Positions 1,890-61,227 of a stretch of 64,000 bases of DNA are shown here, piece by piece. The stretch lies in the IMG/VR virus record IMGVR_UViG_3300032030_000019; one strand, written 5' to 3'. This DNA is from a virus. Taxonomy: Duplodnaviria > Heunggongvirae > Uroviricota > Caudoviricetes. Positions within the stretch are counted from its first letter, which is position 1. The number at the start of each line of letters is the position of its first letter. The position numbers were made by a program, and so were the translations under genes. The notes under the pieces were generated by a model. It was not told the DNA's origin. It made no database searches and was given only the letters and a program-made list of their open reading frames with translations.

Positions 1890-2431
1890 ATTATTTTACA
1901 TTGGCACGAACGCATAACCTCAAGTGCAGCCTCATGTTTTTCCTTCGTTAGCCCAGCACACGCATCGGCCACGATAGTTACGTCCACACCTTCGATGGCT
2001 TTTATGGCCAACGCATTGGAAACGACGCAAATGTCAGTGCACGTACCAACCATCGTAACTGTTGAATGCGGCTCAATGAATGCACCCCACTTATCATATC
2101 CGAAGTGGGATTTATTGAGAATTGTATCATCTAACATAGGTGCCAACTCTTTTGTAATCTCCCAACCTTTAGTCTGATAGAGACAATGCGGCACAGGAAG
2201 ATACGTACCCTCTAACGTATTCAAATAATCTTCCTTGTGCGTGTCACGTGTGTAAATAATGTGATCACCACGTTTACGCGCCTCGCTTAACAACGTTTTA
2301 ATTTTGGGGATAATCTTCACTGCGTCCTCATTTGCGAGTGCCCCCGTTGTAAAATCGTTCTGCATATCAATAACCACAAAATATGCAGACGGTGTGTTTT
2401 CCTTTTCACTGCTTACTTTTTTTGTAAACAT
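1886..2431 (-). CDS. pncA: nicotinamidase / isochorismatase-family hydrolase (PncA-like)
   Basis: VVIDMQNDF (D-x-Q-N-D-F), DTH, catalytic-Cys motif VGTCTDICV; start set at the internal Met (MFTKK) with GAAGGAG SD right after the nadD stop. Confidence 0.75.
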   Translation of the reverse strand: MFTKKVSSEKENTPSAYFVVIDMQNDFTTGALANEDAVKIIPKIKTLLSEARKRGDHIIYTRDTHKEDYLNTLEGTYLPVPHCLYQTKGWEITKELAPMLDDTILNKSHFGYDKWGAFIEPHSTVTMVGTCTDICVVSNALAIKAIEGVDVTIVADACAGLTKEKHEAALEVMRSCQCKII

Positions 2432-2432
2432 A

Positions 2433-3053
2433 TTAGGCTCCTTCTTCCCTAAGATTTTTCGCATAAATTTTCACTAACTTCACACTCGATACATCAATCA
2501 AGTGCTGTAGCGATTTCCTCACTTCCGTTGCGCTTCCATCGCCGACGTATGCTACGTGTTCAACGTTTGTGCGTATGTTAATATTCTCAGACGTATACCC
2601 TGGACGATCCACTACAAGAATATCAGACTCACGTAGAATAACTTCATGTTTACGCCATAAGTGTAACATCTCGAAAGAGTCACCACCTATAACTGTTGTA
2701 AACGTATATTCGTTGCCCCATTTTTTCTTAACATCAAGTAACGTGTCAGCGAATCCACGTGTCGTATCCCTCAAATACGCAATTTCCATATCATCCACAA
2801 CTACGTTGCCCCAATTATCCGTAGCCTCACGTAACATAGCAACACGTTCAATGAAGTCAAAATTATATTCGTCTTCATCCTGTTTTTTACGATGCCATGT
2901 TACTGTAGTCGGAATGACCACTACCTGATCAAACCGATCCTTAAGCATCTCAATTATGCCTATATGTGTGGATGTGACAGGGTTAAATGTCCCACCATAT
3001 ATTGCTATTTTCATTCTAGTCTCCTGTTTACCATAATTTCTCCTGTTTACCAT
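2433..3053 (-). CDS. nadD: nicotinate/nicotinamide mononucleotide adenylyltransferase (NadD/NMNAT family)
   Basis: GGTFNPVTSTH (GGTFxPxHxGH-like), VIGGDSFEMLHLW...VVDRPGY, GSATEVRKSL match the NadD signature blocks; an alternative start is the Met of MKIAIYGG at 3014. Confidence 0.8.
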   Translation of the reverse strand: MVNRRNYGKQETRMKIAIYGGTFNPVTSTHIGIIEMLKDRFDQVVVIPTTVTWHRKKQDEDEYNFDFIERVAMLREATDNWGNVVVDDMEIAYLRDTTRGFADTLLDVKKKWGNEYTFTTVIGGDSFEMLHLWRKHEVILRESDILVVDRPGYTSENINIRTNVEHVAYVGDGSATEVRKSLQHLIDVSSVKLVKIYAKNLREEGA

Positions 3054-3412
3054 GATTCGACTCCAAAACCTATTCCCGGGTTGTAATATCCGTAATTCTT
3101 TTGGACCCCATATAATTCTATAAATATACCCAAATGTTCTGAAATCAAGTGACCGTCACACAGGTTCAACACAACCTCGTCCCGTGCTTCCCCTAAAAAT
3201 TGTCTACTATCATCATAGACCACAATACTAGCAAACAAATAGGTACCGACTTCTATTTTTTTCTTCATGTATTTACGCCCATGTATCCGTTTGCACCTTA
3301 AATGCACGATACGTTTTTGATGGATGTACCATGTCCGTACGTACGTGATAACTTTCATGTGGAAACGACCATTGATTACTACAGTCAGGGAAACGTAACA
3401 GGCCAAATTCAC
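3047..3412 (-). CDS. small protein, NPG-x-x-F...E-x-W tail family
   Basis: C-terminal YYNPGIGFGVESW; 7-nt stop/start overlap (ATGGTAA) with nadD. Confidence 0.5.
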   Translation of the reverse strand: MNLACYVSLTVVINGRFHMKVITYVRTWYIHQKRIVHLRCKRIHGRKYMKKKIEVGTYLFASIVVYDDSRQFLGEARDEVVLNLCDGHLISEHLGIFIELYGVQKNYGYYNPGIGFGVESW

Positions 3413-12087: not shown

Positions 12088-12314
12088 ACCTCCGAGTCAA
12101 AGCTAAAGCCCGGATTGTAATGTGAGCGTTGTAGATTCATATGAAAATCGAACGTTTCATTGAACTCCAGGATAAATGACGAGCGGTTTTGATAGAGTAA
12201 GACGTCAATGTAATTACAATAAATGTAATAACAACCAAAGACGCCCTCTCCATCCTCAGACATGCTACGGCACAGATAGGAGTTACCAATTACGTTAGCG
12301 ATCACGTTTGTCAT
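12081..12314 (-). CDS. small protein, NPG tail family (YNPGFSFDSEVW)
   Basis: same tail; GGAGGTG SD and a TGATG overlap with the next gene. Confidence 0.5.
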   Translation of the reverse strand: MTNVIANVIGNSYLCRSMSEDGEGVFGCYYIYCNYIDVLLYQNRSSFILEFNETFDFHMNLQRSHYNPGFSFDSEVW

Positions 12315-13422
12315 TATTGCAACGTGAGCACAACATTTGGCAATTTTCTTCCACAGTACGTCCGCCCTTTGACCATGGCACTACGTGATCACCTTGCATG
12401 TCCTCAAACGTAAACTCACCACCACATATAGCGCACTTATGCCCCTGACGTTCATACATACGTCTCTTCATTTGTTCAGGGAACGTACGTATGGATAAGT
12501 ACTTCTCATCGTGAGTTGTACGTTCAGACAATATGTACGGAATTATACCTGTTTGTTTAGTTACATCCTCATCCATAACCAACTTATTTATGGTTTCACG
12601 TAATTCATTTGTGTTATATACGTGGCCATGATATTTGTTATAGAGTGTGCCCCAATCCTGATTCTCCGTTAACTTTTTCGGTACGTCAGGGAACATACGT
12701 TTGGCCCACGATATAACCTCTTGAAAGTACAACCACAATTCGTTGGCATCCACGTCATGCTGATGTAGGGCCATGTACTGTTCCAACGTTATGCCGTCAC
12801 GTTCAGCTATCCACGTCAATGCCTTTTCCAAATATTCCTGACGTATGGAGTTCGCCTTTACATACCCGTCTGACATTTGTGCCGCAGCGCACCCACGTTT
12901 ACTGAAATAACGTTTGGCGTCTGAGATGAACGTTCCGGCATACGTAGCGTTTAACAATTCTTGGTTTGTTAATGGTACACCTGCAATGTTTATAATCTTG
13001 AACCATGCCAAACGTTCCTCTGTTGTACCCTCACATATGTATACTGTAACCTCGTAATCAAGTATACGTTGCTGCTCAGTTTCGGTAAGGTTACGCATGT
13101 ATTTTTCATGTCCGTCAATTTTAATAGGGTACATATTCTCCAAATACTGACCTATTGAGATCGTACGTTGCTGTCCATCAATAACCTCATATTCTGAGTC
13201 TGACACTTTTGACCAATACATCGTGTTCAATGGGAAACCATTGTAAACTGAATTAATGACAGCTCTACGTTGTTGATCGTTATACACAAACTCACGCTGA
13301 TACATGGGGCGTACAGTTAACTTATGATCAGCATTGTAATACGTGAATACGCCATCATCTTTAAGATCTATATACCCCTCACATAGATCTCGTACTTTAA
13401 TTTTTGCTTCTGTTATCTTCAT
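12295..13422 (-). CDS. DUF262 (ParB/GmrS-like, DGQQR motif) + C-terminal HNH endonuclease fusion
   Basis: YQREF...VIDGQQRTISIGQYL (DUF262 hallmark) and C-terminal HKCAICGGEF...GDHVVPWSKGG...NCQMLCSRCNNDK (HNH); 26-nt overlap with the upstream methyltransferase. Confidence 0.7.
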   Translation of the reverse strand: MKITEAKIKVRDLCEGYIDLKDDGVFTYYNADHKLTVRPMYQREFVYNDQQRRAVINSVYNGFPLNTMYWSKVSDSEYEVIDGQQRTISIGQYLENMYPIKIDGHEKYMRNLTETEQQRILDYEVTVYICEGTTEERLAWFKIINIAGVPLTNQELLNATYAGTFISDAKRYFSKRGCAAAQMSDGYVKANSIRQEYLEKALTWIAERDGITLEQYMALHQHDVDANELWLYFQEVISWAKRMFPDVPKKLTENQDWGTLYNKYHGHVYNTNELRETINKLVMDEDVTKQTGIIPYILSERTTHDEKYLSIRTFPEQMKRRMYERQGHKCAICGGEFTFEDMQGDHVVPWSKGGRTVEENCQMLCSRCNNDKRDR

Positions 13423-23739: not shown

Positions 23740-25062
23740 TTATCCAGCTGGGAATACAACCTCAAACTGTTTATATGGGCATGTATCCATTATATTGTTT
23801 GTCAGAACAACAGTCTTGTCTTCAAACAACACAGGACTCCAATCAGTATAATTGTCTGTCATAATAACAATCAAATCAGGATCCATTCTATGGTCCTGTA
23901 CATATACGCTGATCGCACCCATATCTGTACCACCACCTTCTGTAGTAAGCACTTCGCTTTGACATACATCAAAGTCCTGTATTACACGACAAACAGCAGT
24001 GTCACATTCAAGGATAGTGACTTTAATCTCAAGATCATCGGAATCAGCTATTGATTTCATAATTCCATACATCTTTTCGGTTAAGCCACTCATACTCCCC
24101 GACACGTCCATTCCGATGACAAGATTTAATTCAGTGACATAATCTACACGTGCCGGATAAATTATGTTTTTAATTAAGCCTTGTAGTCTACGATTAGGTT
24201 TTCTGAATGTTCTATGCTCGAATCCATACTGCATCTGTGATGACTTCGTATGTAGCACAGCCTTGAATACATCCTCCCAATTGTAGACAATCTTTTCCAC
24301 TTTTTTCAATGCATCGCTCGGATTAGAACCCTTTCCTTGGGCTTGCGCTGCCGCGGATTCACATTCGCCTCTGAGCTTCTGCACGGCCGTCGTGGTTTTT
24401 CCATCCTTGTATCCTTTCATGCTTATATCCATACCATCAGGACCTAATGGTACACCTAATGGCACACAGTTCTTACACTGTGGATATTGGCTAGGATCGA
24501 AAGGCATAGGAATAGGATTCCCATTCGCATCTTTTGGACAATTCTTGCAATCTTTACAAGAAGATGCAGATTGAACCAAGAGTTCCAAATACTCCTCATA
24601 AGTTCGATACTCAGGGAACGGCCGACCATCCTTCAGCTTGTAATTACTTGGCATTTGTGGTGTTCTATGAGGATACTCAATATACTGATTTATCTCCATA
24701 TCTGCCGCAATATTATGCACGAGAAAATTTACATCCTGACGTGGGCTACGTTTGATACGCGTATGATGATCAAATATATAATGCATTAATTCATGCAGTA
24801 TATGACCACACAACTCTTGACTCACGACATTCTCTTTATCAGTGTTTGTCATTCCCGTACCTTGAGGCTTATACTTTTCATAAAGTTTCTTTACATATTC
24901 CCTATTAAAAGAATACTCAAGGTTCGCTGACATCGCACCTGTATCGAGTGTTTCGTTGTCTTCCGCATAGCGCATCTGTGTAATCACAGGTCCGTAAAAA
25001 GGATGATCTTTCGCAATCTTTCTCAAGGCAACCATGATCATATCGATTACTTCATCGACCAT
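23740..25062 (-). CDS. von Willebrand factor A protein with N-terminal HExxH metallopeptidase-like region (DUF2201-like), MoxR partner
   Basis: HILHELMHYIFDHH (HExxH), MIDAS motif LVIGMDVSGSMSG (DxSxS), adjacent to an AAA_5 ATPase. Confidence 0.7.
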   Translation of the reverse strand: MVDEVIDMIMVALRKIAKDHPFYGPVITQMRYAEDNETLDTGAMSANLEYSFNREYVKKLYEKYKPQGTGMTNTDKENVVSQELCGHILHELMHYIFDHHTRIKRSPRQDVNFLVHNIAADMEINQYIEYPHRTPQMPSNYKLKDGRPFPEYRTYEEYLELLVQSASSCKDCKNCPKDANGNPIPMPFDPSQYPQCKNCVPLGVPLGPDGMDISMKGYKDGKTTTAVQKLRGECESAAAQAQGKGSNPSDALKKVEKIVYNWEDVFKAVLHTKSSQMQYGFEHRTFRKPNRRLQGLIKNIIYPARVDYVTELNLVIGMDVSGSMSGLTEKMYGIMKSIADSDDLEIKVTILECDTAVCRVIQDFDVCQSEVLTTEGGGTDMGAISVYVQDHRMDPDLIVIMTDNYTDWSPVLFEDKTVVLTNNIMDTCPYKQFEVVFPAG

Positions 25063-39194: not shown

Positions 39195-42100
39195 CTACCC
39201 TGCAAGTAGCTTATTAGCAATATCTACAGGATATATTTTTGATGGATTATCACGTATATGAAGACTCTGTTTATTTTGAGCCTTCTCCTCATCATCCTCC
39301 ATTCCTGGTATTAAATGTTCATCCCATCGCTTTACCTTGTCAAAATACGATGGAATACCCAATGGCTTTGTTGCAGTTTCAATACCACGTACGTGACGAT
39401 TTACCTTAAATTTTACAGTACGTATATACGGACTCAAAAACTCAGGATAATCACAAATATAATGTGGTTTCGCACGTGGCCCACCTGTTGGGTTCTTAAT
39501 GAACTCGCCGATAGGATCCACTAACCCTTTATCAGGATTATCCGTTATCTCATCCTCAAGTATTGTAATATCAGGCTCAGTCAAATATGTAAAGACATAA
39601 TCCACAGAACCTTTTGGACCTGAGATCTTACCTTCCATTGTCTCAACATCAAGAGAATACGACATATGCTCACATGAATTGTACAAAATATCCAAGTCAT
39701 ATTTAAAGTCGATGCCATACTTCTCGAAAATGTACTTGCGGAAGTAGTTGCGATAACATATGTCGGCTTCAAACAAGTCACGTATAGGCAAGTTATTCTG
39801 ATTTGAGTCATGTATAACGCTTTCAGCACTAACGTCAATATCCAACGCACGTATGTTCATAATAGACAATTCAAAGCCCTCGTTCGCAACAACAGACGCA
39901 TTTCCCTGATTACCATAATTAACGGCCGTCGTAAATGCGTCGTCTTTGTCTCCATGTAAACGATCCCCTAAGAACGTTTCAATTTCACCCGTTTGCTGTA
40001 AATAATGAAGTTTGTGCTGACGTAAACGGTCAACTTCCCTCCACGTACCAAACATAGCACGCTTCATCTCTGTCACACGTTCCGTAGTTACACCCGCACG
40101 TGCAGCTAACCCTGCATCTCCTTGCCCATATATCGATGAAATCATACATGTTTTGGCAATCCCTCGATATTTAGCTTTAAAGTCGGGGTCGTTAACGTGA
40201 TCAGGCCACGTAATCTTCGCAAGCTCCATATACGCATCTTTGCCTGAGTTGTATATATCCATAAATACAGGATCATGGGATATATAACAAATTGAACGTG
40301 GCTCCATTTGTGATACGTCGAAATACGTTTTTATACGTCCTGGCTCTACGATAAGGCACTTCATTGTGTCGCTGTGTGGCAAGAACGTATGGTAGCCTGA
40401 CGTACATCGCTTTGTTGCCAACGTATTCATCGCGAACGTTGGCACATACGTATCTTTCGGACCATTATCAGAAAAATAGCCTGAATGTACACCTGGATAA
40501 AAGATCTTATGTTTACCGTTAAGTATGTTTTTCAGGTACGTATTCAGCTCTTTACTTGCTACTGACGCAAAATCCGTAAGAAAGCCAAGTTTTGCAAGAA
40601 GTTGGTACGTATCATCAGGAAGTTCAGTCGTCATATTGTTACGAGGTTCATCAAATAAATACTGAAAATATTCCTCAGCAAAAGTAACCCCGTCGCTAAT
40701 AAACTCCTTTTTCCATACGGCTGGCTCACGTTTCATAATAGACACACGTCCACCTTCTTCGCGTGAGTAGTAACTTCCTATTTCTACTTCAGGCATAAAC
40801 AAGTCTAATGCATCTGACTGGTTCAGTAAGTCTATTTTACTTTCAAAGACGGTTAGTAGTTCACGTATCTTTTCAGGTGTACGTTCGACATTGTTCGCCT
40901 TGATGTATTGCCACGTAGAGTACATAACAAGATAGTTATCCCTATATTCGTGTTTCAACATAGCACCGAAGATCTCAGGAAATTGATCGTTCGAGCTGTA
41001 CTTACATACTTTCTCAAAATACAGCTTATCTCGTCCTTCATAGATTGTACCAACGAACGGGTCCTCTGTTACACGTATATGTTCATCAAATCTTGTAATT
41101 TCTTCAGCACACGCACGTAAACGCAAATAACGATATGCGGATATTTCAGGATGTGTAATGCCGTCAAACTCCTCTGCAACAGCTTTAGGCACAATAGTAG
41201 ATAGATCGAACTGTAAATAGTAATCATCATCTAAATCCCGTAAATCATAAACCTGAGCAAGAGTGGATACCTGTTTCTTGGGTTCAAATATGGTCACCTC
41301 ATTATGCACTTCCTCCAATAACCATCTCAAGTTATTTTCAGGTATGTCTTCCGCAACACCATGAGTCGTTACACCCAAATCTATACTCACTTTCTTAAAA
41401 CGTGAACATAACGTATCATATAACGTAACCGTCACATCTTTCTTGCCCCTCTTCGTTTGCGCCTCAATTTTCGTCCCGTACTTTTTATACCATGCACGTG
41501 CAACATCGATTGCGATCCATGCGTCTTCCATACGTATATACTTTTGTAAAGGCGACCACATATACGTTAAACCTGCGTTCTTAATATACTCTTTTAACGC
41601 AATATAAACGTCAGCCACTATAAATCGATTAAACGACTCCACAAGTTCAGACAAATGTATCATAGTCTGTATAAACTTACCGATAGGTTCAGCTGTCTTT
41701 TTCTTACGTGTATACGAATCAAGCCCCTGTGACATAGCTTCTTCGTCTAAAACAGAAGAAACCTCATCACTTACGTCATATCCGAACATGTCATTCAAGA
41801 ACGTACTCGGAATATTCCAGTCAGGCTTTTTCGGACACAGTCTTCCTAACAGTATCTTTGTGATCTTCATTGGATCAGCTTGGCATACCTCAGGATATTC
41901 GGCTATAATACGTAAAGTCTGTTTAGGTATCTCGATTGTACACCACTTATTCTGCTTCATATACGAACGTAGGAAGATCTTATTCAATAAAATCTCGTAG
42001 TTACTACATATGTTTTGGCAATATTTCGCATACTTTGTGGCTTTCTCAACATCTACCTTGATCCCTGACATTTTTAATTCCATGCCCAGATATTTATTGA

Positions 42101-43319
42101 ACAAGAACACAGGATAACAGTTAGAACCGTAAGCGGGGAATAACTTCTCTGCCAATTTCACACCATAAAAGGCATCATAGCAGCAATATACACCCAGTTT
42201 TTCAGGATCACAAGCATACCAATCAGAATACTCATCCCAATAGTTGCTAAGAAGGTTAAAGAGATGTCCATTGTTATTTTTTACATCCTGTACGTAAAAT
42301 TCGCATGCATCAATATACGTTTGTGGCAATTTCTCTTTCGGATCCAACACCTGTCTTACGTTATCCTCTTGATCTAAACAGAAGTACAACGCGGACTTAA
42401 ATGAAGCAAACGTAGGATGCTGCGCACGTATGGCTTTTATGTATGCCTGTTCAGTACTCAACGTATCATTCCATGATGGTGCATGTAGGTAATACTGTAC
42501 GTTATACTTAAGTGAGTGTTTTTGATCGTCAGCTGTTGTAAGGGCGTACGCATCCTGAATGTAGTAGAAACGTTGGTACATTCTGTACAGAACCATCATT
42601 TCAAACGCACAGTTATACGCCCATACGTTTGCAGCATGCGTATCCATATATTGTTTGAACTTAATCATGAATTGTGACGCAAAGAACATACTGTCAGGTG
42701 TTTGTTTGGACTCATCGTAATCGAAATCCTTACGAAAATCAAAGAAATATGCGGTATCTTTAAGTGATAACGCAAATCCTGAAATCCTAAAATCCTCATC
42801 TTCAGGAAATCCAGCTGTCTCAAAGTCCAATCCTACCCACGTAGTTTTATCGGGCATAAATACTGTCTCAATTATACGTGTGCCTTCCTTCAGCCCAACG
42901 CAAATCGTCTCAGGCAAGAACGTATGTCCACCTTCCACCCCATCAGACAAGAAGTATGTGTATTTTGAATCCACCAATACATCCTCATCTACGGAAGGTT
43001 TGGTTCCAAATACGAGTACGTTCTTGCCTATATGGATTGACGGTAGGGCTGTAAATGAGGCATATGTAAACTTACGTAAACCTATGTGTATTTTTAATGC
43101 CCGATGTAATTCCAATAGTTTATCATATATTTTACGCCCATACGCAAGGAATACGTTATTCTCAGACGTTTGTATTAAATTAAAAAACGTATCCTCATCT
43201 ATCAACTCAATTGTACCCTCAGGAAGAGTTGAATAATGATTTTTAATTCCTCGATGTAAACCTTGTTTATCTTTTACAATATAGCGCATGTTATAATCCT
43301 TTAGAAAAGTTGTGAGCAA
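39195..43319 (-). CDS. family A DNA polymerase with 3'-5' exonuclease domain (1374 aa)
   Basis: Exo I motif GLDFETAG; motif A DVSQMEPR; motif B RGIAKTCMISSIYGQG (R..AK....G..YG); motif C VIHDS. Confidence 0.85.
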   Translation of the reverse strand: MLTTFLKDYNMRYIVKDKQGLHRGIKNHYSTLPEGTIELIDEDTFFNLIQTSENNVFLAYGRKIYDKLLELHRALKIHIGLRKFTYASFTALPSIHIGKNVLVFGTKPSVDEDVLVDSKYTYFLSDGVEGGHTFLPETICVGLKEGTRIIETVFMPDKTTWVGLDFETAGFPEDEDFRISGFALSLKDTAYFFDFRKDFDYDESKQTPDSMFFASQFMIKFKQYMDTHAANVWAYNCAFEMMVLYRMYQRFYYIQDAYALTTADDQKHSLKYNVQYYLHAPSWNDTLSTEQAYIKAIRAQHPTFASFKSALYFCLDQEDNVRQVLDPKEKLPQTYIDACEFYVQDVKNNNGHLFNLLSNYWDEYSDWYACDPEKLGVYCCYDAFYGVKLAEKLFPAYGSNCYPVFLFNKYLGMELKMSGIKVDVEKATKYAKYCQNICSNYEILLNKIFLRSYMKQNKWCTIEIPKQTLRIIAEYPEVCQADPMKITKILLGRLCPKKPDWNIPSTFLNDMFGYDVSDEVSSVLDEEAMSQGLDSYTRKKKTAEPIGKFIQTMIHLSELVESFNRFIVADVYIALKEYIKNAGLTYMWSPLQKYIRMEDAWIAIDVARAWYKKYGTKIEAQTKRGKKDVTVTLYDTLCSRFKKVSIDLGVTTHGVAEDIPENNLRWLLEEVHNEVTIFEPKKQVSTLAQVYDLRDLDDDYYLQFDLSTIVPKAVAEEFDGITHPEISAYRYLRLRACAEEITRFDEHIRVTEDPFVGTIYEGRDKLYFEKVCKYSSNDQFPEIFGAMLKHEYRDNYLVMYSTWQYIKANNVERTPEKIRELLTVFESKIDLLNQSDALDLFMPEVEIGSYYSREEGGRVSIMKREPAVWKKEFISDGVTFAEEYFQYLFDEPRNNMTTELPDDTYQLLAKLGFLTDFASVASKELNTYLKNILNGKHKIFYPGVHSGYFSDNGPKDTYVPTFAMNTLATKRCTSGYHTFLPHSDTMKCLIVEPGRIKTYFDVSQMEPRSICYISHDPVFMDIYNSGKDAYMELAKITWPDHVNDPDFKAKYRGIAKTCMISSIYGQGDAGLAARAGVTTERVTEMKRAMFGTWREVDRLRQHKLHYLQQTGEIETFLGDRLHGDKDDAFTTAVNYGNQGNASVVANEGFELSIMNIRALDIDVSAESVIHDSNQNNLPIRDLFEADICYRNYFRKYIFEKYGIDFKYDLDILYNSCEHMSYSLDVETMEGKISGPKGSVDYVFTYLTEPDITILEDEITDNPDKGLVDPIGEFIKNPTGGPRAKPHYICDYPEFLSPYIRTVKFKVNRHVRGIETATKPLGIPSYFDKVKRWDEHLIPGMEDDEEKAQNKQSLHIRDNPSKIYPVDIANKLLAG

Positions 43320-53530: not shown

Positions 53531-53725
53531 TTAATCTCGGCAAACATACCAATCTCGACTTATAGGCGTAATTGAGATAGGTGCTGTAAGATCTACTGAA
53601 GTTAAGTCTTCTTCGATTACCATTTTCATATTGTTGATTCGTAGAAGGTTCTTGTCGCCATCCTTTCTAAATCCCCAATCGATAGTCTCCATTACACTGT
53701 TTGTGTCTGCAATTTTAAAAATCAT
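53531..53725 (-). CDS. hypothetical protein (64 aa)
   Basis: ORF, ATGA-coupled. Confidence 0.35.
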   Translation of the reverse strand: MIFKIADTNSVMETIDWGFRKDGDKNLLRINNMKMVIEEDLTSVDLTAPISITPISRDWYVCRD

Positions 53726-54420
53726 TTATCTTCACCTTTCTTTTTCTTTACAACTTTAATTTTTTGTTTACCTTCTGAAGATACCACTTTCTTTTCCGAT
53801 GCTTTCTTAACAAGATCGGGTTTACCTTCGTCTGTGATGATTTTAGATACGAGTTCATCTATAAATGCTTCGGCAGCGTCGCCATCGCCATGAACAATCA
53901 CGGTAACACTACTGTCACCGTCCTCATCATCCTCATCGTCCTCATCATCTTCGTAATCCTCGTCGTCATCCTCGTCAACGTCGCCTGCAAATGGACAATC
54001 TGCGCAATCGCCATCACATATGTTGTCGTCATCTTCATCAACGTCTTCATCTTCATCGATGTCCTCATCCTCGTCAACGATTTCGAGTATGGCATCATCA
54101 TCTGTGAGGTTTCGGTCAGCGTCAAATACACACTCGTCAGGATCGAATTCACAACCCTCACATGTGTCTTTACTACACATAAATCCTGCAGCAGATGTTA
54201 ATTCCACACCGCTATCAAACGCTACGGTATCTTGTATGCGTGCTTGCAAAAGTTGTGCATACTGTGATAATGTGGCAATTTGAAGACTAATCAAGATACC
54301 TTCCATGGACTGTTGATGCTTCATTTTTGAGTAAATACATGATAAGTCATGGATTTTCTCCATAACCTTATCTTTTTCGTTCTTTAAATCGACTACTAAG
54401 TCAAATACTGCTTTTTCCAT
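53722..54420 (-). CDS. extremely acidic low-complexity protein (possible DNA mimic)
   Basis: about 80-residue run of Asp/Glu (DEDEDIDEDEDVDEDDD...DEDDDEDYEDDEDDEDDEDGD). Confidence 0.5.
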   Translation of the reverse strand: MEKAVFDLVVDLKNEKDKVMEKIHDLSCIYSKMKHQQSMEGILISLQIATLSQYAQLLQARIQDTVAFDSGVELTSAAGFMCSKDTCEGCEFDPDECVFDADRNLTDDDAILEIVDEDEDIDEDEDVDEDDDNICDGDCADCPFAGDVDEDDDEDYEDDEDDEDDEDGDSSVTVIVHGDGDAAEAFIDELVSKIITDEGKPDLVKKASEKKVVSSEGKQKIKVVKKKKGEDK

Positions 54421-54435
54421 TTTTGTTGTCTCCTG

Positions 54436-54630
54436 TTAAATTTTATATTCTTTTCGGTCCTCGAACTCTTGTGCTCTACCTTTGTTCCAATTTTTAATAG
54501 CCCGATAATACCCAACGATGCGAGAATATACCTCGGTCTCTTGGTCTCTCTTGCCATCAAGTATGTCTTTACGTCGTTGTTCTAGATCGGCTAAGCGATC
54601 TGTAAGTTCTTGTTTACTTGCTACTCGCAT
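54436..54630 (-). CDS. nrdD: glycyl-radical domain of NrdD encoded as a separate, overlapping ORF
   Basis: SRIVGYYRAIKNWNKGRAQEFEDR matches the RxxGYxxxxxxxNxGK glycyl-radical tail of NrdD, but lies in the -1 frame, overlapping the nrdD stop by 10 nt. Confidence 0.6.
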   Translation of the reverse strand: MRVASKQELTDRLADLEQRRKDILDGKRDQETEVYSRIVGYYRAIKNWNKGRAQEFEDRKEYKI

Positions 54631-57600
54631 TTGTTTGTTTCCTCCATTTCTCGTTTCTGAATAGCTTCTTTAACTTCACGAATTTGAGCATCCACTCTTG
54701 CAAGCTCCTCATCCCGACATTTAGGACAAAATTTTTGTTCACCATCCAAATATCCATGTTTGGGGCAAATAGAGAACGTTGGTGAAATCGTTAAGTATGG
54801 AAGTCTGTAATTAGTAAAAATTGTTTTTATAAGTTCAGCACACGCTTTCCAGTTGTGTATCCGTTCGCCTAAGTACGCATGAAACACAGTTCCACCTGTG
54901 TACTTTACTTGAAATTGATCTTGGATATCAAGAGCCTCGAAAATATCATCAGTAAAAGTAGCAGGTAACCAAGTGCTATTGGTATAATACGGATCTCCAT
55001 TATCATTTGCTGTGATAATATCGGGGTAGTTTTTCTTGTCATGTAAAGCAAATCGATACCCAGTACCTTCAGCAGGGGTTGCCTCTAGATTAAACAATAA
55101 ACCAGTCTCTTCTTGAAAATCAGATAACCTTGAATTAATGTAATCCATTAGTTCGTTTGTAAAGGCTTGCCCCCATTCATCAGTAATATCATGCTCGTCA
55201 TTAGTGAAGTTTCGTATACATTCATTGCATCCATTGATACCTATTGTATTAAAGAAGGTGTCATAAGACTGAACATAAACTTTACTGTACGGATAGAATT
55301 GTCCTTCAAGTAACTCTTCAATGGTCTTCCGCTTGATTACTAGAGACTCTTTGGCCATAACCAAGAGACAATCAAGCTCTTTATAGAACCCCTCTTTATC
55401 TCCCTTGAACCTATAGCCAAGTTGTGGTAAATTAATTGTAACAACACCAGTAGAACCAGTTTTTTCAGCAGCTCCAAACAGACCACCACCTCGCTTCATT
55501 AACTCTCTTTTATCGAGTCTGAGTCGGCAGCAATTATGTGTCAAGATATTATTAGCATAGAATGTATGTCCTAACGACTCACTTTGATTATAATCGTCGG
55601 GAGAGTCAACTTCAAGATCATAAACTAATCCATCATAATCAATCAGCTCGATAGATACTATTTCATCTCTATAATTGATGTAACCACGATATGAATCGTC
55701 ATTATTGCTTGGATCGAATACCAAAAGATTGTATCCTGCATTACGAATAACCTGATTCCAAGGCTTCTTTACGTATGGGGAATCCTCAATCTCATCATTA
55801 TAGTAACAATGTGTATCTCCTGAAAAATTAGTCTCTAATTCTATTACTAAATTCTTTGAGGGGATATAGAAATCCGCGATCCCAGTAAAGTTGCCATTAG
55901 AATCATTAATAACAAACTGATGCTTATACTCAAGCCCCAATGCGTCCAACTCTTTTCTGAATTTAAATTCCCAGTCAGAAGCTATGGTTGTGTGCCCATT
56001 AGTTTCTTGAACATGATCCCAATAGCCTTGTGAATGGATTGGGTTATTGGCTTTCCATCGTTCACTAGACGCTTTTCGACATTTTTCGCTAACTGGATGC
56101 CCCATACTAGTTTGTGATATTTTTTTCATGCGTTCACGGTTTTGTTCATCGGTCATGGTACGCATAGGATTGCTATTTCCTTGCCATCTACCAAGTCTTT
56201 TATTTCTATCGGAACACTTTTGTCGATAAAGTTTACCTTTTTCTTCACCGAAACGCTCTTCACATGTTTTACCACGATTCTTGTTATTCCACAACTGAAT
56301 AGTATTTTTCTCATATCTAACAGAGAATTTATCGCCAACTTTTAAGTCTTTTGCTTGACGAATGATCAATGATTTATCATTCTTATTTCTTTCTGCATAG
56401 ATTAAGTGCGGATGATCTGGTGTTGTAATGAGAATTTTACCAGATTGAGTTGTAAACTTGTACATCTTTCCAGAATACTTGATAACTATTTTCCTCTTGA
56501 TCGGATAGTATCCCCAACGTGTGAGAACTTTAATTTCATTCTCATCATAGTTATCGAATATATTCTTAATAGAGTCCTCTTCCCACTTACCATCTGGATT
56601 CAGAATTCTGATAACGGTATCAGGCATTATACACATGCTTCTTATATCACTTGGGCTTAGATCAGAATTGATGAAGTTCTGGAAATAAGGCATACCATAT
56701 TTACATGTTATTTCAAATAGCTTCTTGGCATTTGATGATTCCCAATCGAAATCCTTAGTTATGGAGTAAGTACAGATTGGGTAACTGTACAATCTGCCAT
56801 CTGCATCGCCCTTCTCGAACAAATCAAGAAGAACTTCATTAAACATATCCATCTCTTTCTGACAATCTTTATACTTGAAATCTACTTGTTTTCCACCGAC
56901 CCAACAATATGTTTCTGCTAAATCATTAGGAACAATCCAATCTAGAGTAAAGTTACTGAAGGGTGCTTGACTATTCGCCGATATAAATTCATGTCCATTA
57001 ATGTCTTGAAAGAATACTACGCCATTATCTGTTGTAGGGCACCAAACTTCTCCGTCATAAGGTATTTTCTCGACCTCAACTGGAATATTTATACGCTCAA
57101 TAGATTCAAATTTCGAGGTTAAACCAAACCCCTCATCTACGCTTAATGGAACAGTAAAATTAGCCTCTTCATCTAAGAACTCATATGCTCTGTGAATTTC
57201 TCCGTTACCAGTATATACCCGATGCTCATATGATACTATTTGCTCATAATTACAGTCTTTGTTATATAATTTAATCAAGAACTCTTTATCATTAAGCTTC
57301 CGAGTTATTTTCTTAACTGAGTTAAATTCAACTTTACGAGTCTTAGGATTTACCGTATATACCACATCTCCGATCTTAACTTCAGAACACTGTTTCCAAC
57401 CATCCTGTGTTAAGAGTCTTGTTGAGATCGGTACACACCCCCATCTACTACTACAATTGAGACCAAACAAAAGCGACTGAACACATTGATAAACCTCTTT
57501 GCGAGAAAGGTTATCTATTTTTATAAAAGGAGCCACATAAGTATCAACACTAGAATACGCCATGGCTCCAGAATTTTCGTTTTGTAGTAGGCCATTGTAG

Positions 57601-58199
57601 TTAACTAGCTGATTGAAGAGTGTGCTTAAATGCTTAGCTGGTTTTGATGTTATTTTGCCGGGCACACCACCAATACCTTCCCTGATTAAATCTAGGAAAT
57701 TATGTCCAACGCAATAACATGCCAACATACTTAAGTCATGTATATGAAACTTGCAAGCTCGATGTGCATCGCCTATCTCTTTGGGATATATCTTATTCAA
57801 CCAGTAGTTAGCCGTAACAGCCCCACTATTATTGAGAATCATCCCACCAAGTGAGAAACCCACAGACGCATTCTCCTTAACACGCCAATCACTTTCGTCT
57901 AGATATTTGTCAACCAAGTCTATCGGACGTATGCTACGTAACTGCTCACGATTATACCGATATTTGATGTATGCACGAGCGACGTTAGGATTGTACTTCA
58001 TCAGAACTTCTTCTATCATATCCTGAATCTGTTCTACGTTCATTTTGTCTACGAGCCTATCCTCTAATTCATGAAAAACAAAGTTTCCCATCTCAGGCTC
58101 ATTTGTTGCATGGCAGGCTTTATCGACGGCATCTTGTATTTTCAGACGGCTAAATTCGACTTCTCTACCATCACGTTTAATAACTGTTTTTAATTCCAT
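54621..58199 (-). CDS. nrdD: anaerobic (class III) ribonucleoside-triphosphate reductase NrdD precursor interrupted by two inteins
   Basis: N-terminal ATP cone; NrdD blocks (YSSVDTYVAPF, SQAPFSNFT, CCRLRLD...GGGLFG) and a C-terminal Zn ribbon; exteins total about 670 aa. Confidence 0.9.
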   Translation of the reverse strand: MELKTVIKRDGREVEFSRLKIQDAVDKACHATNEPEMGNFVFHELEDRLVDKMNVEQIQDMIEEVLMKYNPNVARAYIKYRYNREQLRSIRPIDLVDKYLDESDWRVKENASVGFSLGGMILNNSGAVTANYWLNKIYPKEIGDAHRACKFHIHDLSMLACYCVGHNFLDLIREGIGGVPGKITSKPAKHLSTLFNQLVNYNGLLQNENSGAMAYSSVDTYVAPFIKIDNLSRKEVYQCVQSLLFGLNCSSRWGCVPISTRLLTQDGWKQCSEVKIGDVVYTVNPKTRKVEFNSVKKITRKLNDKEFLIKLYNKDCNYEQIVSYEHRVYTGNGEIHRAYEFLDEEANFTVPLSVDEGFGLTSKFESIERINIPVEVEKIPYDGEVWCPTTDNGVVFFQDINGHEFISANSQAPFSNFTLDWIVPNDLAETYCWVGGKQVDFKYKDCQKEMDMFNEVLLDLFEKGDADGRLYSYPICTYSITKDFDWESSNAKKLFEITCKYGMPYFQNFINSDLSPSDIRSMCIMPDTVIRILNPDGKWEEDSIKNIFDNYDENEIKVLTRWGYYPIKRKIVIKYSGKMYKFTTQSGKILITTPDHPHLIYAERNKNDKSLIIRQAKDLKVGDKFSVRYEKNTIQLWNNKNRGKTCEERFGEEKGKLYRQKCSDRNKRLGRWQGNSNPMRTMTDEQNRERMKKISQTSMGHPVSEKCRKASSERWKANNPIHSQGYWDHVQETNGHTTIASDWEFKFRKELDALGLEYKHQFVINDSNGNFTGIADFYIPSKNLVIELETNFSGDTHCYYNDEIEDSPYVKKPWNQVIRNAGYNLLVFDPSNNDDSYRGYINYRDEIVSIELIDYDGLVYDLEVDSPDDYNQSESLGHTFYANNILTHNCCRLRLDKRELMKRGGGLFGAAEKTGSTGVVTINLPQLGYRFKGDKEGFYKELDCLLVMAKESLVIKRKTIEELLEGQFYPYSKVYVQSYDTFFNTIGINGCNECIRNFTNDEHDITDEWGQAFTNELMDYINSRLSDFQEETGLLFNLEATPAEGTGYRFALHDKKNYPDIITANDNGDPYYTNSTWLPATFTDDIFEALDIQDQFQVKYTGGTVFHAYLGERIHNWKACAELIKTIFTNYRLPYLTISPTFSICPKHGYLDGEQKFCPKCRDEELARVDAQIREVKEAIQKREMEETNKCE
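55533..56633 (-). mobile_element. intein 2 (367 aa) in NrdD with embedded Vsr/DUF559-like (PD-(D/E)xK) endonuclease
   Basis: starts CIMPDTVIRIL, block B TTPDHPHL, ends VYDLEV...GHTFYANNILTHN followed by Cys +1 at the CCRLRL active-site region; internal WEFKFRKELDALGLEY...GIADFYIPSKNLVIELE resembles DUF559. Confidence 0.75.
56973..57437 (-). mobile_element. mini-intein 1 (155 aa) in NrdD
   Basis: starts CVPISTRLLT (block A), TxxH-like block B (SYEHRVYT), ends YDGEVW...NGHEFISAN followed by Ser +1; parallels the end of intein 2. Confidence 0.65.
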
Positions 58200-58230
58200 A
58201 ACAAATCTCTATTATTCACAAAGTATAGTC

Positions 58231-58623
58231 TTACGCCAGCACAAACGTAATTGCATACGTTTTACCCAAGAAGAACGTAGGCGTTTGCGCATCACGTGAG
58301 GTAACAAGATTTGCACAAACGTATGAGCAACCATCTGTACTTTCTAAATCCATGAACGAATATACGAATCCGTTTTGGTCACCCACGTTTGCTTCAACGA
58401 GTTTGCCATGCACGTAAATTGCATCTGACGTTGGCGCCACACATGTCTCGTCGTCCTCGCCTTCAATGGCACACGTGAACTGTTGACCTAAGTATAAGTC
58501 AAAGTCAGGTATAGATGTTTGTAGGCTGAATGTATCGTGTGGGTTTGAGTTACTTGTGAGTGTCAGACTTACGTTATTATCTGACATAGACATATTAGTT
58601 AATGTTAAATACGAAAAATTCAT
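58231..58623 (-). CDS. hypothetical protein (130 aa)
   Basis: ORF. Confidence 0.4.
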   Translation of the reverse strand: MNFSYLTLTNMSMSDNNVSLTLTSNSNPHDTFSLQTSIPDFDLYLGQQFTCAIEGEDDETCVAPTSDAIYVHGKLVEANVGDQNGFVYSFMDLESTDGCSYVCANLVTSRDAQTPTFFLGKTYAITFVLA

Positions 58624-60978: not shown

Positions 60979-61227
60979 TTACTCCAATTCACCCTTGAAA
61001 TAAGCGATGATCTCTCCGTCACTAACAAAACGCTTAACTTCTTCGTTGTTGTCATCTAAAATGATTAAAGTAGGTGCTGCCTTTACTTTGTGATCAATGG
61101 CGAACTCTCTACCGTCATCTTCTGATGCATTTAGGATTTTAAGATCATTCACAGGGTTTTCATTCAAATACTTCTCTACTTCCTTGCATTTTCTACAAGT
61201 TTTGGATTTTATCAACACTTTTTGCAT
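60979..61227 (-). CDS. glutaredoxin/thioredoxin-like protein (NrdH-like redoxin)
   Basis: CRKC CxxC motif near the N-terminus of an 82-aa protein; sits near the RNR genes. Confidence 0.55.
   Translation of the reverse strand: MQKVLIKSKTCRKCKEVEKYLNENPVNDLKILNASEDDGREFAIDHKVKAAPTLIILDDNNEEVKRFVSDGEIIAYFKGELE

Follow-up and report, generated by a model that had tools for sequence, protein, structure and literature searches.

The stretch of DNA analyzed here (hereafter the window) comprises 64,000 nucleotides (nt) of a Caudoviricetes virus (IMG/VR record IMGVR_UViG_3300032030_000019), and positions 54436-58199 of it hold two overlapping minus-strand open reading frames (ORFs) of 1192 and 64 amino acids (aa). 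The larger one is nrdD, encoding a class III (anaerobic) ribonucleotide reductase (RNR), which an earlier interpretation made without database searches (the sequence-only reading) had described as an NrdD of about 670 aa interrupted by two inteins. All residue strings and boundaries quoted in that reading are found at the positions given when the translated ORF is read. The minus-strand orientation goes unmentioned there, and its coordinates, which start at 54436, also take in the second, overlapping 64-aa ORF with a glycyl-radical motif. The locus is interpreted, with a probability of about 0.75 and on the basis of sequence comparisons, as a two-gene phage class III RNR cassette that consists of a core precursor with two unrelated inteins and a separate glycyl-radical subunit. 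Its features are as follows.

54621..58199, minus strand: nrdD large ORF, a 1192-aa precursor of 138 kDa with an ATG start, containing the NrdD catalytic core and two putative inteins and lacking a glycyl-radical domain
57438..58199, minus strand: N-extein (aa 1-254), with the ATP-cone, the beta-A Cys (YCVGH, aa 162-166) and the first half of loop 2 (SRWG)
57945-58187, minus strand: ATP-cone (aa 5-85), matched by Pfam
56973..57437, minus strand: intein 1 (aa 255-409), a putative 155-aa mini-intein of 17.9 kDa without an endonuclease domain
56634..56972, minus strand: middle extein (aa 410-522), from the second half of loop 2 (SQAPF) up to the finger-loop Met522
55533..56633, minus strand: intein 2 (aa 523-889), a putative intein of 367 aa and 43.2 kDa with canonical class 1 termini
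55680..56288, minus strand: nested insert of intein 2 (aa 638-840, 203 aa), with basic repeats and a PD-(D/E)XK-like core; a putative homing nuclease by weak matches
54624..55532, minus strand: C-extein (aa 890-1192), with the finger loop C890-C891-R892, the rest of the barrel, the Zn ribbon and the charged tail
C1145-x2-H1148 ... C1158-x2-C1161, minus strand: Zn ribbon in the C-extein, a sequence motif
54624-54716, minus strand: amphipathic charged tail of 31 aa (aa 1162-1192), the C-terminal end of the large ORF
54640..54645, minus strand: GGAGGA, a Shine-Dalgarno-like sequence 9 nt upstream of the small-ORF ATG, within the end of the large ORF
54436..54630, minus strand: small ORF of 64 aa and 7.8 kDa, with an N-terminal amphipathic helix and the radical loop ETEVYSRIVG40YYRAIKNWNKG
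54511-54513, minus strand: Gly40 codon of the small ORF, the glycyl-radical Gly

The large ORF matches the Pfam family NRDD (E=8.7e-144) in three separate stretches and the NCBIfam model NF006126 (ribonucleoside triphosphate reductase) with 906 bits. Its exteins (254+113+303) add up to 670 aa, corresponding to a spliced core of 77 kDa, and in a family alignment profile the joined exteins are collinear over their whole length with two NrdDs of known structure, those from Prevotella copri (8p23) and Thermotoga maritima (4coi). A collinearity check, with T4 or E. coli NrdD, had been proposed in the sequence-only reading, and a lack of collinearity, which would have spoken against its claim, was not seen. 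In the alignment of homologues, the gaps fall exactly at G254|S410 and M522|C890: P0002, P0004, P0007 and P0076 lack intein 1, and P0001, P0004, P0007 and P0076 lack intein 2. Intein 1 is the sole insertion in P0001 (821 aa), P0002 (822 aa) contains another small intein at the second site only, and P0004 (665 aa) as well as many Treponema proteins (698-712 aa) carry neither. As far as these alignments tell, such presence and absence among phage homologues that are 70-88% identical is the pattern that mobile inteins produce. The exact gaps and the collinear exteins support the proposal of two inteins in one phage class III RNR gene, and the predicted core length of about 670 aa holds; however, this NrdD is incomplete, as it ends after the Zn ribbon without a glycyl-radical domain.

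Every invariant NrdD residue of a six-sequence alignment is retained in the window protein, and the features expected of a class III RNR after splicing include YC163VGH, with the beta-A Cys, and the finger loop M522-C890-C891-R892. The first insertion site, SRWG|SQAPF, aligns with SRGG|NQVV of 8p23, which is loop 2 (residues 304-311 after correction of a four-residue numbering offset), and Q411 aligns with the substrate-contacting Gln309 of P. copri NrdD. Loop 2 of the P. copri enzyme relays the specificity signal to the active site, with Arg305 and Gln309 acting on the substrate (PMC11226230). At the second site, M522-C890-C891-R892 aligns with M-G-C416-R, the Cys-radical loop of P. copri NrdD; the MCCR double-cysteine is one of the two dominant class III RNR finger-loop motifs, MGCR and MCCR, as defined previously (PMC9669993). 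The +1 nucleophile of intein 2 would be the first Cys of the pair (C890), and the predicted radical Cys is C891 by alignment. Because both interrupted loops touch the substrate or carry the radical, the intein-bearing precursor must presumably be inactive. The earlier suggestion that both inteins occupy catalytic motifs is correct in that both sit in functionally critical loops, although site 1 lies in the allosteric, substrate-contacting loop 2 and is not strictly catalytic.

What this core lacks is found on the adjacent gene. With the Zn ribbon and the 31-aa tail, the large ORF comes to its end at aa 1192, without a radical loop, and the motif RIVG40Y lies on the 64-aa ORF, which overlaps the large ORF by 10 nt (ATGCGAGTAG) in frame -1 and matches the last 33-35 positions of PF13597, TIGR02487, NF006358 and NF006126. 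The idea that NF006126 represents a model without the radical domain, raised by the large-ORF match that reaches position 674, proved wrong: positions 648-682 match the small ORF and the alignment of the tail is spurious, and NF006126 is, on these alignments, a fused-type model. The R[IV]xGY motif is absent from all but one of the 120 closest NrdD homologues, and these 119 have a charged tail at their C-terminus. A small glycyl-radical domain (GRD) gene follows the core in all six loci examined (6/6), with varying junction geometry. The loci of P0001 and P0002 (L001 and L002) encode a 63-aa homologue with a 14-nt overlap in frame +1, and a further locus (L012) has a 55-aa homologue after 80 nt. 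A Spirochaetales genome has the order NrdR-NrdD-(122 nt)-76-aa GRD-NrdG, and in Treponema socranskii 240 nt, containing ttgaca/tataat-like hexamers, separate the core from the gene for a 184-aa protein, after which comes NrdG. The 184-aa T. socranskii protein (L003 6358-6912) comprises a helix, the radical loop and a CPNC redoxin, occurs in complete genomes and bears the NCBI name 'anaerobic ribonucleoside-triphosphate reductase'. An exhaustive phmmer search with the 64-aa protein yielded 1795 representatives, and 148 of the best 150 are 42-317 aa long; of 20 small ones inspected, 14 start with Met and have a helix ahead of the radical loop, and a few represent pieces of fused genes.

The tail of the core and the head of the small protein together amount to ~60 extra residues that are absent from fused relatives, and both occur only in split forms. 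Their hydrophobic residues (L1166, V1169, I1173, V1176 and I1180 in the tail; L9, L13, L16 and I23 in the head) recur with a spacing of 3-4 residues. From these comparisons, the split is neither a sequencing error nor a frameshift site, and the arrangement is shared by the phage and Treponema and appears to be widespread in spirochaetes and their phages. Since the core never has a radical domain of its own, the 64-aa protein is, by the same comparisons, an obligate subunit.

Redoxin domains recur around these proteins. Bacterial stand-alone radical-domain proteins are usually fused to a C-terminal glutaredoxin/thioredoxin-like domain (CPNCP), as is also the case for P0128, P0131, P0145, P0154, P0156 and P0160. 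The phage has a thioredoxin-like gene of its own, encoding 82 aa, at an upstream position (window 60979-61227, minus strand). The fused NrdD-redoxin P0003 (942 aa) has a ~170-residue internal duplication (HDLSMLTGYC...KKEMDMV twice), which is probably an assembly artefact.

Intein 2 shows the features of a canonical class 1 intein. In its context IRSM|CIMPDTV...TTPDHPHL...HTFYANNILTHN|CCRLRLD, the splicing residues C523, T593-P-D-H596, VYD861LEV, H888-N889 and the +1 Cys890 are all present as expected for class 1. As described in the sequence-only reading, it ends immediately before the thiyl-radical region CCRLRLD, and the alignment with the solved NrdDs places C890 at the start of the finger-loop CCR. 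Pfam Intein_splicing (PF14890) matches aa 542-870 with 47.6-49 bits (cut-off 35.8) and TIGR01445 with 34-41 bits (cut-off 24.5), and these matches suggest a Hint fold. A word-indexed homology search with intein 2 and a tblastn search against phages detected no close homologue. The nested insert begins with basic repeats that resemble the DNA-binding repeats of phage homing endonucleases, followed by SDWE ... ADFYIPSKNLVIELE. The pattern SDWE ... ADFY ... IELE (ExE, not ExK) aligns with the D...DxK strand of the PD-(D/E)XK phage exonuclease 3k93, with a weak E=0.029. Among the PHROG families, the insert matches phrog_22215 (1.5e-7; function unannotated), phrog_559 ('HNH endonuclease', 3.6e-4) and phrog_5715 (exonuclease, 3e-3); it has no match in Pfam or NCBIfam, and tblastn against phages gave only E>=0.02. 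It may, with low confidence, be a putative nuclease of the PD-(D/E)XK type.

Intein 1, in the context SRWG|CVPISTRLLT...NGHEFISAN|SQAPFSNF, begins with Cys1 (C255), contains S323-Y-E-H326 in block B and V-W-C387 in block F (position F:4), and ends in S-A-N409 before the +1 Ser410. A phmmer search of the PDB with intein 1 alone gave chance matches only, such as StayGold. The tblastn search against phages returned 225 records; the best matches listed fall within genes for the terminase large subunit or DNA polymerase (lowest E=9e-5), and one match begins in register with the annotated DNA polymerase intein of phage PaulScherrer. Three phage inteins (terminase/DNA polymerase) align collinearly with intein 1, with C1, H72, C133, T136 and N155 invariant, and the family has the common C-terminal pattern ...C..T...(S/T)(G/A)N. 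A five-sequence family profile matches the AceL NrdHF intein (6zgq) with E=1.7e-7 and, with weaker scores, further solved inteins, and this homology to solved inteins points to a Hint fold in intein 1 as well. The AceL NrdHF-1-1 intein is likewise RNR-associated and is the best solved-structure match to the profile, in blocks A-B; however, only its N-terminal half aligns, its host protein and insertion site differ, and the sequence similarity is low.

Intein 1 has been seen in two sequences, the window and P0001. The two copies are 91% identical, with a ratio of nonsynonymous to synonymous substitution rates (dN/dS) of 0.13, compared with 0.04-0.09 in the flanking exteins, and the low ratio argues for maintained function of intein 1. 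A scan of viral contigs for its relatives found none; a word-indexed homology search also found none, although it missed even the 91% identical P0001 copy and is therefore uninformative on rarity.

Class 1 inteins have Asp at block F position 4. The Cys that intein 1 has there occupies the position of the class 3 nucleophile (PMC5222942, PMC7664689). Intein 1 and its nearest relatives resemble both phage class 1 non-His inteins and class 3 (WCT) inteins in the non-His residue at G:6, the Ser/Thr at G:5 and the invariant Cys at F:4. Class 3 inteins, however, have no N-terminal nucleophile and carry Trp at B:12, and intein 1 differs from them in its Cys1 and in Val at B:12 (PMC5050341, PMC2807308, PMC7664689). 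At the WCT triplet positions it has Val328 (B:12), Cys387 (F:4) and Ser407 (G:5), with the Cys alone exact; W, C and T all occur, along with Cys1, in the related intein of the phage PaulScherrer DNA polymerase. Class 3 membership of intein 1 was rejected on the grounds that B:12 is Val and that Cys255 is present at position 1, where it is invariant in the family alignment. A non-His penultimate residue (G:6) is usual in phage class 1 inteins, and a Gly-to-His change at this position impaired splicing (PMC5050341).

The two inteins are, by sequence comparison, not specifically related to each other. The sequence-only reading had regarded their C-terminal blocks as clearly related, a claim that does not survive the direct BLASTP comparison (E=1.4), in which there is only a generic likeness of blocks F and G. 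Neither intein has a detectable close relative in the phage collection searched. The window and the P0001 locus (L001 6001-8466) form a mosaic: a central tract of about 1.4 kb (aa ~130-980), which spans intein 1 and both insertion sites, shows 90-93% nucleotide identity with a synonymous divergence (dS) of 0.33-0.54, and in its flanks synonymous sites are saturated even at 93-100% protein identity. This divergence pattern suggests recent recombination or co-conversion around homing sites and is not proof of homing. At the finger loop, P0002 (L002 6001-8469), P0012 and P0254 carry a different mini-intein of ~150 aa (SMC|PIPGD...ITKN|CRL), with a block F Cys (LYC) and a Thr two residues before the terminal Asn. 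In these proteins, MCCR would be restored only if the intein starts at the Pro after the first Cys, which would make it an intein without an N-terminal nucleophile. Another intein lies exactly at M|CC in P0171, a 674-aa fragment whose host protein is an NrdD with a fused radical domain and redoxin; it starts with Ala (AIMPWQ) and ends in THQ, with a C-terminal Gln instead of Asn. Because differing inteins sit there in P0171, the P0002 group and the window, the finger loop is, as judged from these sequences, a multi-allele intein hotspot and a recurrent target.

Free-standing homing-type genes also occur in these genomes. HNH endonuclease genes lie in the window at 12295-13422 and 23740-25062, both on the minus strand, and L001 has an extra RRXRR+HNH gene (2035-3282) that is absent at the same place in L002. 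These genes suggest additional homing-endonuclease traffic in the phage group, which might mobilize the nuclease-less intein 1 in trans.

In the proposed mechanism, gene 1 would be translated to a 138-kDa precursor whose core is interrupted at SRWG|SQAPF and M|CCR, and two autocatalytic protein-splicing events would release the 77-kDa, 670-aa core. Gene 2, from its own ribosome-binding site, would make the 7.8-kDa GRD protein, whose helix may pair with the 31-aa tail of the core and set Gly40 beside the finger-loop Cys C891, identified by alignment. The radical would then be generated by the NrdG activase, which is expected to come from the host or from elsewhere in the 133-kb genome, as none is encoded in the window. 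Intein 2 presumably spreads by nuclease-driven homing, and intein 1, which has no nuclease, may move by co-conversion or recombination together with its flanks.

Several observations weigh against this reading. Splicing of both inteins is deduced from sequence. In intein 1 the penultimate His is missing, as the sequence-only reading had pointed out, and is replaced by Ala, and block F position 4 has Cys instead of Asp. Intein 1 alone has no Pfam match, and its TIGR01445 match is sub-threshold (E=0.0046). AlphaFold2 models of intein 1 (two sequences) and intein 2 (single sequence) reached a mean predicted local distance difference test (pLDDT) score of 32.7 and 35.2, respectively, and are unusable. 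The nuclease assignment of the intein 2 insert relies on weak matches. Likewise, the tail-head helix pair that would tether the radical subunit is deduced from heptad spacing and co-occurrence, because tail and head share the 3-4 spacing and are confined to split forms. A low-level frameshift fusion of the two ORFs may also take place, being compatible with the sequence. Finally, tblastn with Treponema, phiCTP1 and Oceanotoga phage NrdG queries found no NrdG within the 64-kb window, and a scan of the window for the CxxxCxxC motif returned only an acidic non-radical-SAM protein. The phages phiCTP1 and Oceanotoga phage encode NrdG directly after nrdD; the present phage may rely on a host activase or encode NrdG elsewhere.

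Some of these points also bear on an alternative in which at least one of the inteins is a relic that no longer splices, with nrdD a pseudogene in decay that harbours selfish elements. The absence from intein 1 of both the penultimate His and the class 1 block F Asp would fit such decay, as would the absence of NrdG within the window and the degenerating, intein-laden phage RNR genes on record (Dwivedi 2013, PMC3653736), and no close homologue of intein 2 was found from which selection on it could be gauged. Nevertheless, the 1192 codons are uninterrupted, all nucleophiles (C255, N409, S410, C523, H888, N889 and C890) and all the invariant NrdD residues are kept, the dN/dS values given above for intein 1 and its flanking exteins are low, and the non-His penultimate residue is normal for phage class 1 inteins, with splicing impaired when Gly was changed to His there; the relic explanation is accordingly considered unlikely. 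That aa 255-409 could instead be a lineage-specific accessory domain retained in loop 2 of the mature enzyme, rather than an intein, is highly improbable. Such a domain would account for the lack of a Pfam match of its own, for the lack of a confident AlphaFold fold and for the restriction of the segment to the window and P0001. It would leave unexplained why the segment begins with Cys and ends with Asn, with Ser next, why its profile is homologous to solved inteins, and why it aligns collinearly with an annotated phage intein that has the same block pattern. Furthermore, 155 aa inside an 8-residue loop with the double role of reading the specificity signal and touching the base (PMC11226230) are hard to square with enzyme function.

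Two other alternatives concern the junction between the genes. Programmed ribosomal frameshifting could join the ORFs into a fused NrdD of the conventional kind that has 60 additional helical residues ahead of the radical loop, for which the 10-nt overlap, the -1 frame of the small ORF and an A-rich stretch (aaacaaacaaatg) would be suitable, but this is very unlikely: there is no X XXY YYZ slippery heptamer, GGAGGA precedes the small-ORF ATG by 9 nt, in the closest relatives the ORFs overlap by 14 nt with the small one in frame +1, and in other relatives 80, 122 or 240 nt separate the genes, with promoter-like hexamers in the longest of these spacers. Because frames and spacers differ in this way, frameshift fusion is impossible in most members. 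A sequencing or assembly error in a normal fused gene, conceivable in view of the single-base indels that are common in A-rich runs of metagenome assemblies, is as good as refuted by comparison with relatives. The arrangement recurs at five further loci whose junctions differ, 119/120 homologues end alike, and the ~60 extra residues of tail and head are absent from fused relatives. In addition, an independent sequencing run assembled the same locus with 100% identity over 8469 nt, which excludes an assembly artefact. The two-gene cassette with two inteins and a separate radical subunit is therefore retained as the preferred interpretation.

Phage nrdD genes interrupted by inteins or introns are already known. 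They include the NrdD intein of Clostridium phages c-st and D-1873, Lactococcus phage 949, the group I intron of T4 nrdD and the gut Jug phages (PMC3653736, PMC12880540). In a 2013 survey, nrdD was the most often split phage RNR gene (PMC3653736); 95 of 104 Jug phage genomes have it in fragments, and the inserts include Intein_splicing proteins (PMC12880540). RNR in general ranks with the commonest hosts of inteins (PMC4760082). As in the c-st, 949, T4 and Jug genes, self-splicing mobile elements have found a refuge in the class III RNR gene of a phage; the window differs in having two in-frame, sequence-unrelated inteins in one continuous ORF, in loop 2 and the finger loop. Its inteins are new, very divergent sequences. 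The NrdD of Methanocaldococcus jannaschii may also carry two inteins, although a literature search on archaeal NrdD inteins found nothing relevant.

Fused NrdDs (phiCTP1, Oceanotoga phage vB_OteS-UFV02, MT835493, T4, T. maritima and P. copri) have the same barrel, ATP-cone/N-terminal region, MCCR/MGCR loop and Zn ribbon, and their radical loop sequence (E/T)VY.RI(T/V)GY is that of the small ORF. The nearest GenBank phages, phiCTP1, Oceanotoga phage and MT835493, have an ordinary fused NrdD. In these fused NrdDs, the radical loop comes within 4-6 residues of the Zn ribbon on the same chain, with a small NrdG gene adjacent, whereas in the window ~60 helical residues and a stop/start lie between and no NrdG is nearby. 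A functional parallel is GrcA/YfiD of pyruvate formate-lyase (PFL), also a small stand-alone glycyl-radical domain that serves a large glycyl-radical-enzyme barrel (PMC8683613). Unlike the 64-aa protein, GrcA belongs to another enzyme family and takes the place of the radical domain that a full-length PFL itself possesses, once oxygen has cleaved it; the partner core of the 64-aa protein has no GRD of its own to be replaced, so it does not qualify as a spare part in this sense. In the split class II NrdJa/NrdJb of Pseudomonas aeruginosa, a C-terminal functional module is likewise placed on a second, adjacent gene (PMC4520616), but this module is a Cys-rich Zn-finger/IscU-like one for reduction, does not bear the radical and belongs to another RNR class. 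Splitting has been treated as a strategy possibly distinct to class II and discussed only for that class (PMC9669993), and in a 2026 review of glycyl-radical enzymes the PFL spare part is the only case mentioned (PMC13450708). No class III RNR with a separately encoded radical domain was found in the literature, for which the searchable library is incomplete, and the split radical subunit appears, provisionally, to be undescribed.

The window derives from a JGI metagenome contig of 132,976 bp (Ga0247609_10000077). The genes surrounding nrdD all lie on the same strand and include those for a family A DNA polymerase, a DnaB-like helicase, a primase, an exonuclease and several HNH endonucleases; because of these replication genes, the window is read as a phage replication module. 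An intron or other RNA element in place of the inteins was rejected, as Rfam found no group I or group II intron and no other RNA element over 54000-58600. Megablast of the locus against phages gave no match. The ORF at 39195-43319 (minus strand) encodes 1374 aa, of which only ~987-1147 resemble family A DNA polymerase, and Pfam reported no intein signature in it. Directly downstream of the radical-domain ORF, positions 53722-54420 (minus strand) encode a 232-aa extremely acidic protein with long D/E runs and CxxC and CxxxCxxC motifs. This protein is kept in L001 and L002, where it is labelled PF21825, and gives a weak crAss001_48-related match here (E=0.0038); it is not an NrdG.

By themselves, the two inteins are a further example of selfish elements at the most conserved loops of an essential nucleotide-metabolism enzyme, and one of them, the new intein 1, combines Cys1 with Cys at block F position 4. 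The gene architecture is the more consequential point: a whole clade of class III reductases, including that of oral Treponema, appears to bear its glycyl radical on a separate small protein. If true, this would provide a natural system for studying radical-domain docking, activation by NrdG and exchange after oxygen damage, and annotation would have to be corrected, as the 700-aa and the 64-184-aa proteins are now both named 'anaerobic ribonucleoside-triphosphate reductase'.

A tentative extension, regarded as possible rather than probable, is that the separate GRD acts as an exchangeable 'radical cartridge', in which the oxygen-labile Gly would be carried by a cheap 7.8-kDa subunit held to the 77-kDa core by the helix pair. 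If so, an oxygen-cleaved reductase could be re-armed by swapping the small subunit, sparing resynthesis of the core and two rounds of re-splicing, and in the Treponema redoxin fusion a single small protein would be the source of the radical as well as of the reducing equivalents. Such a cartridge would represent a new organizational principle for glycyl-radical enzymes, widespread in spirochaetes and their phages.

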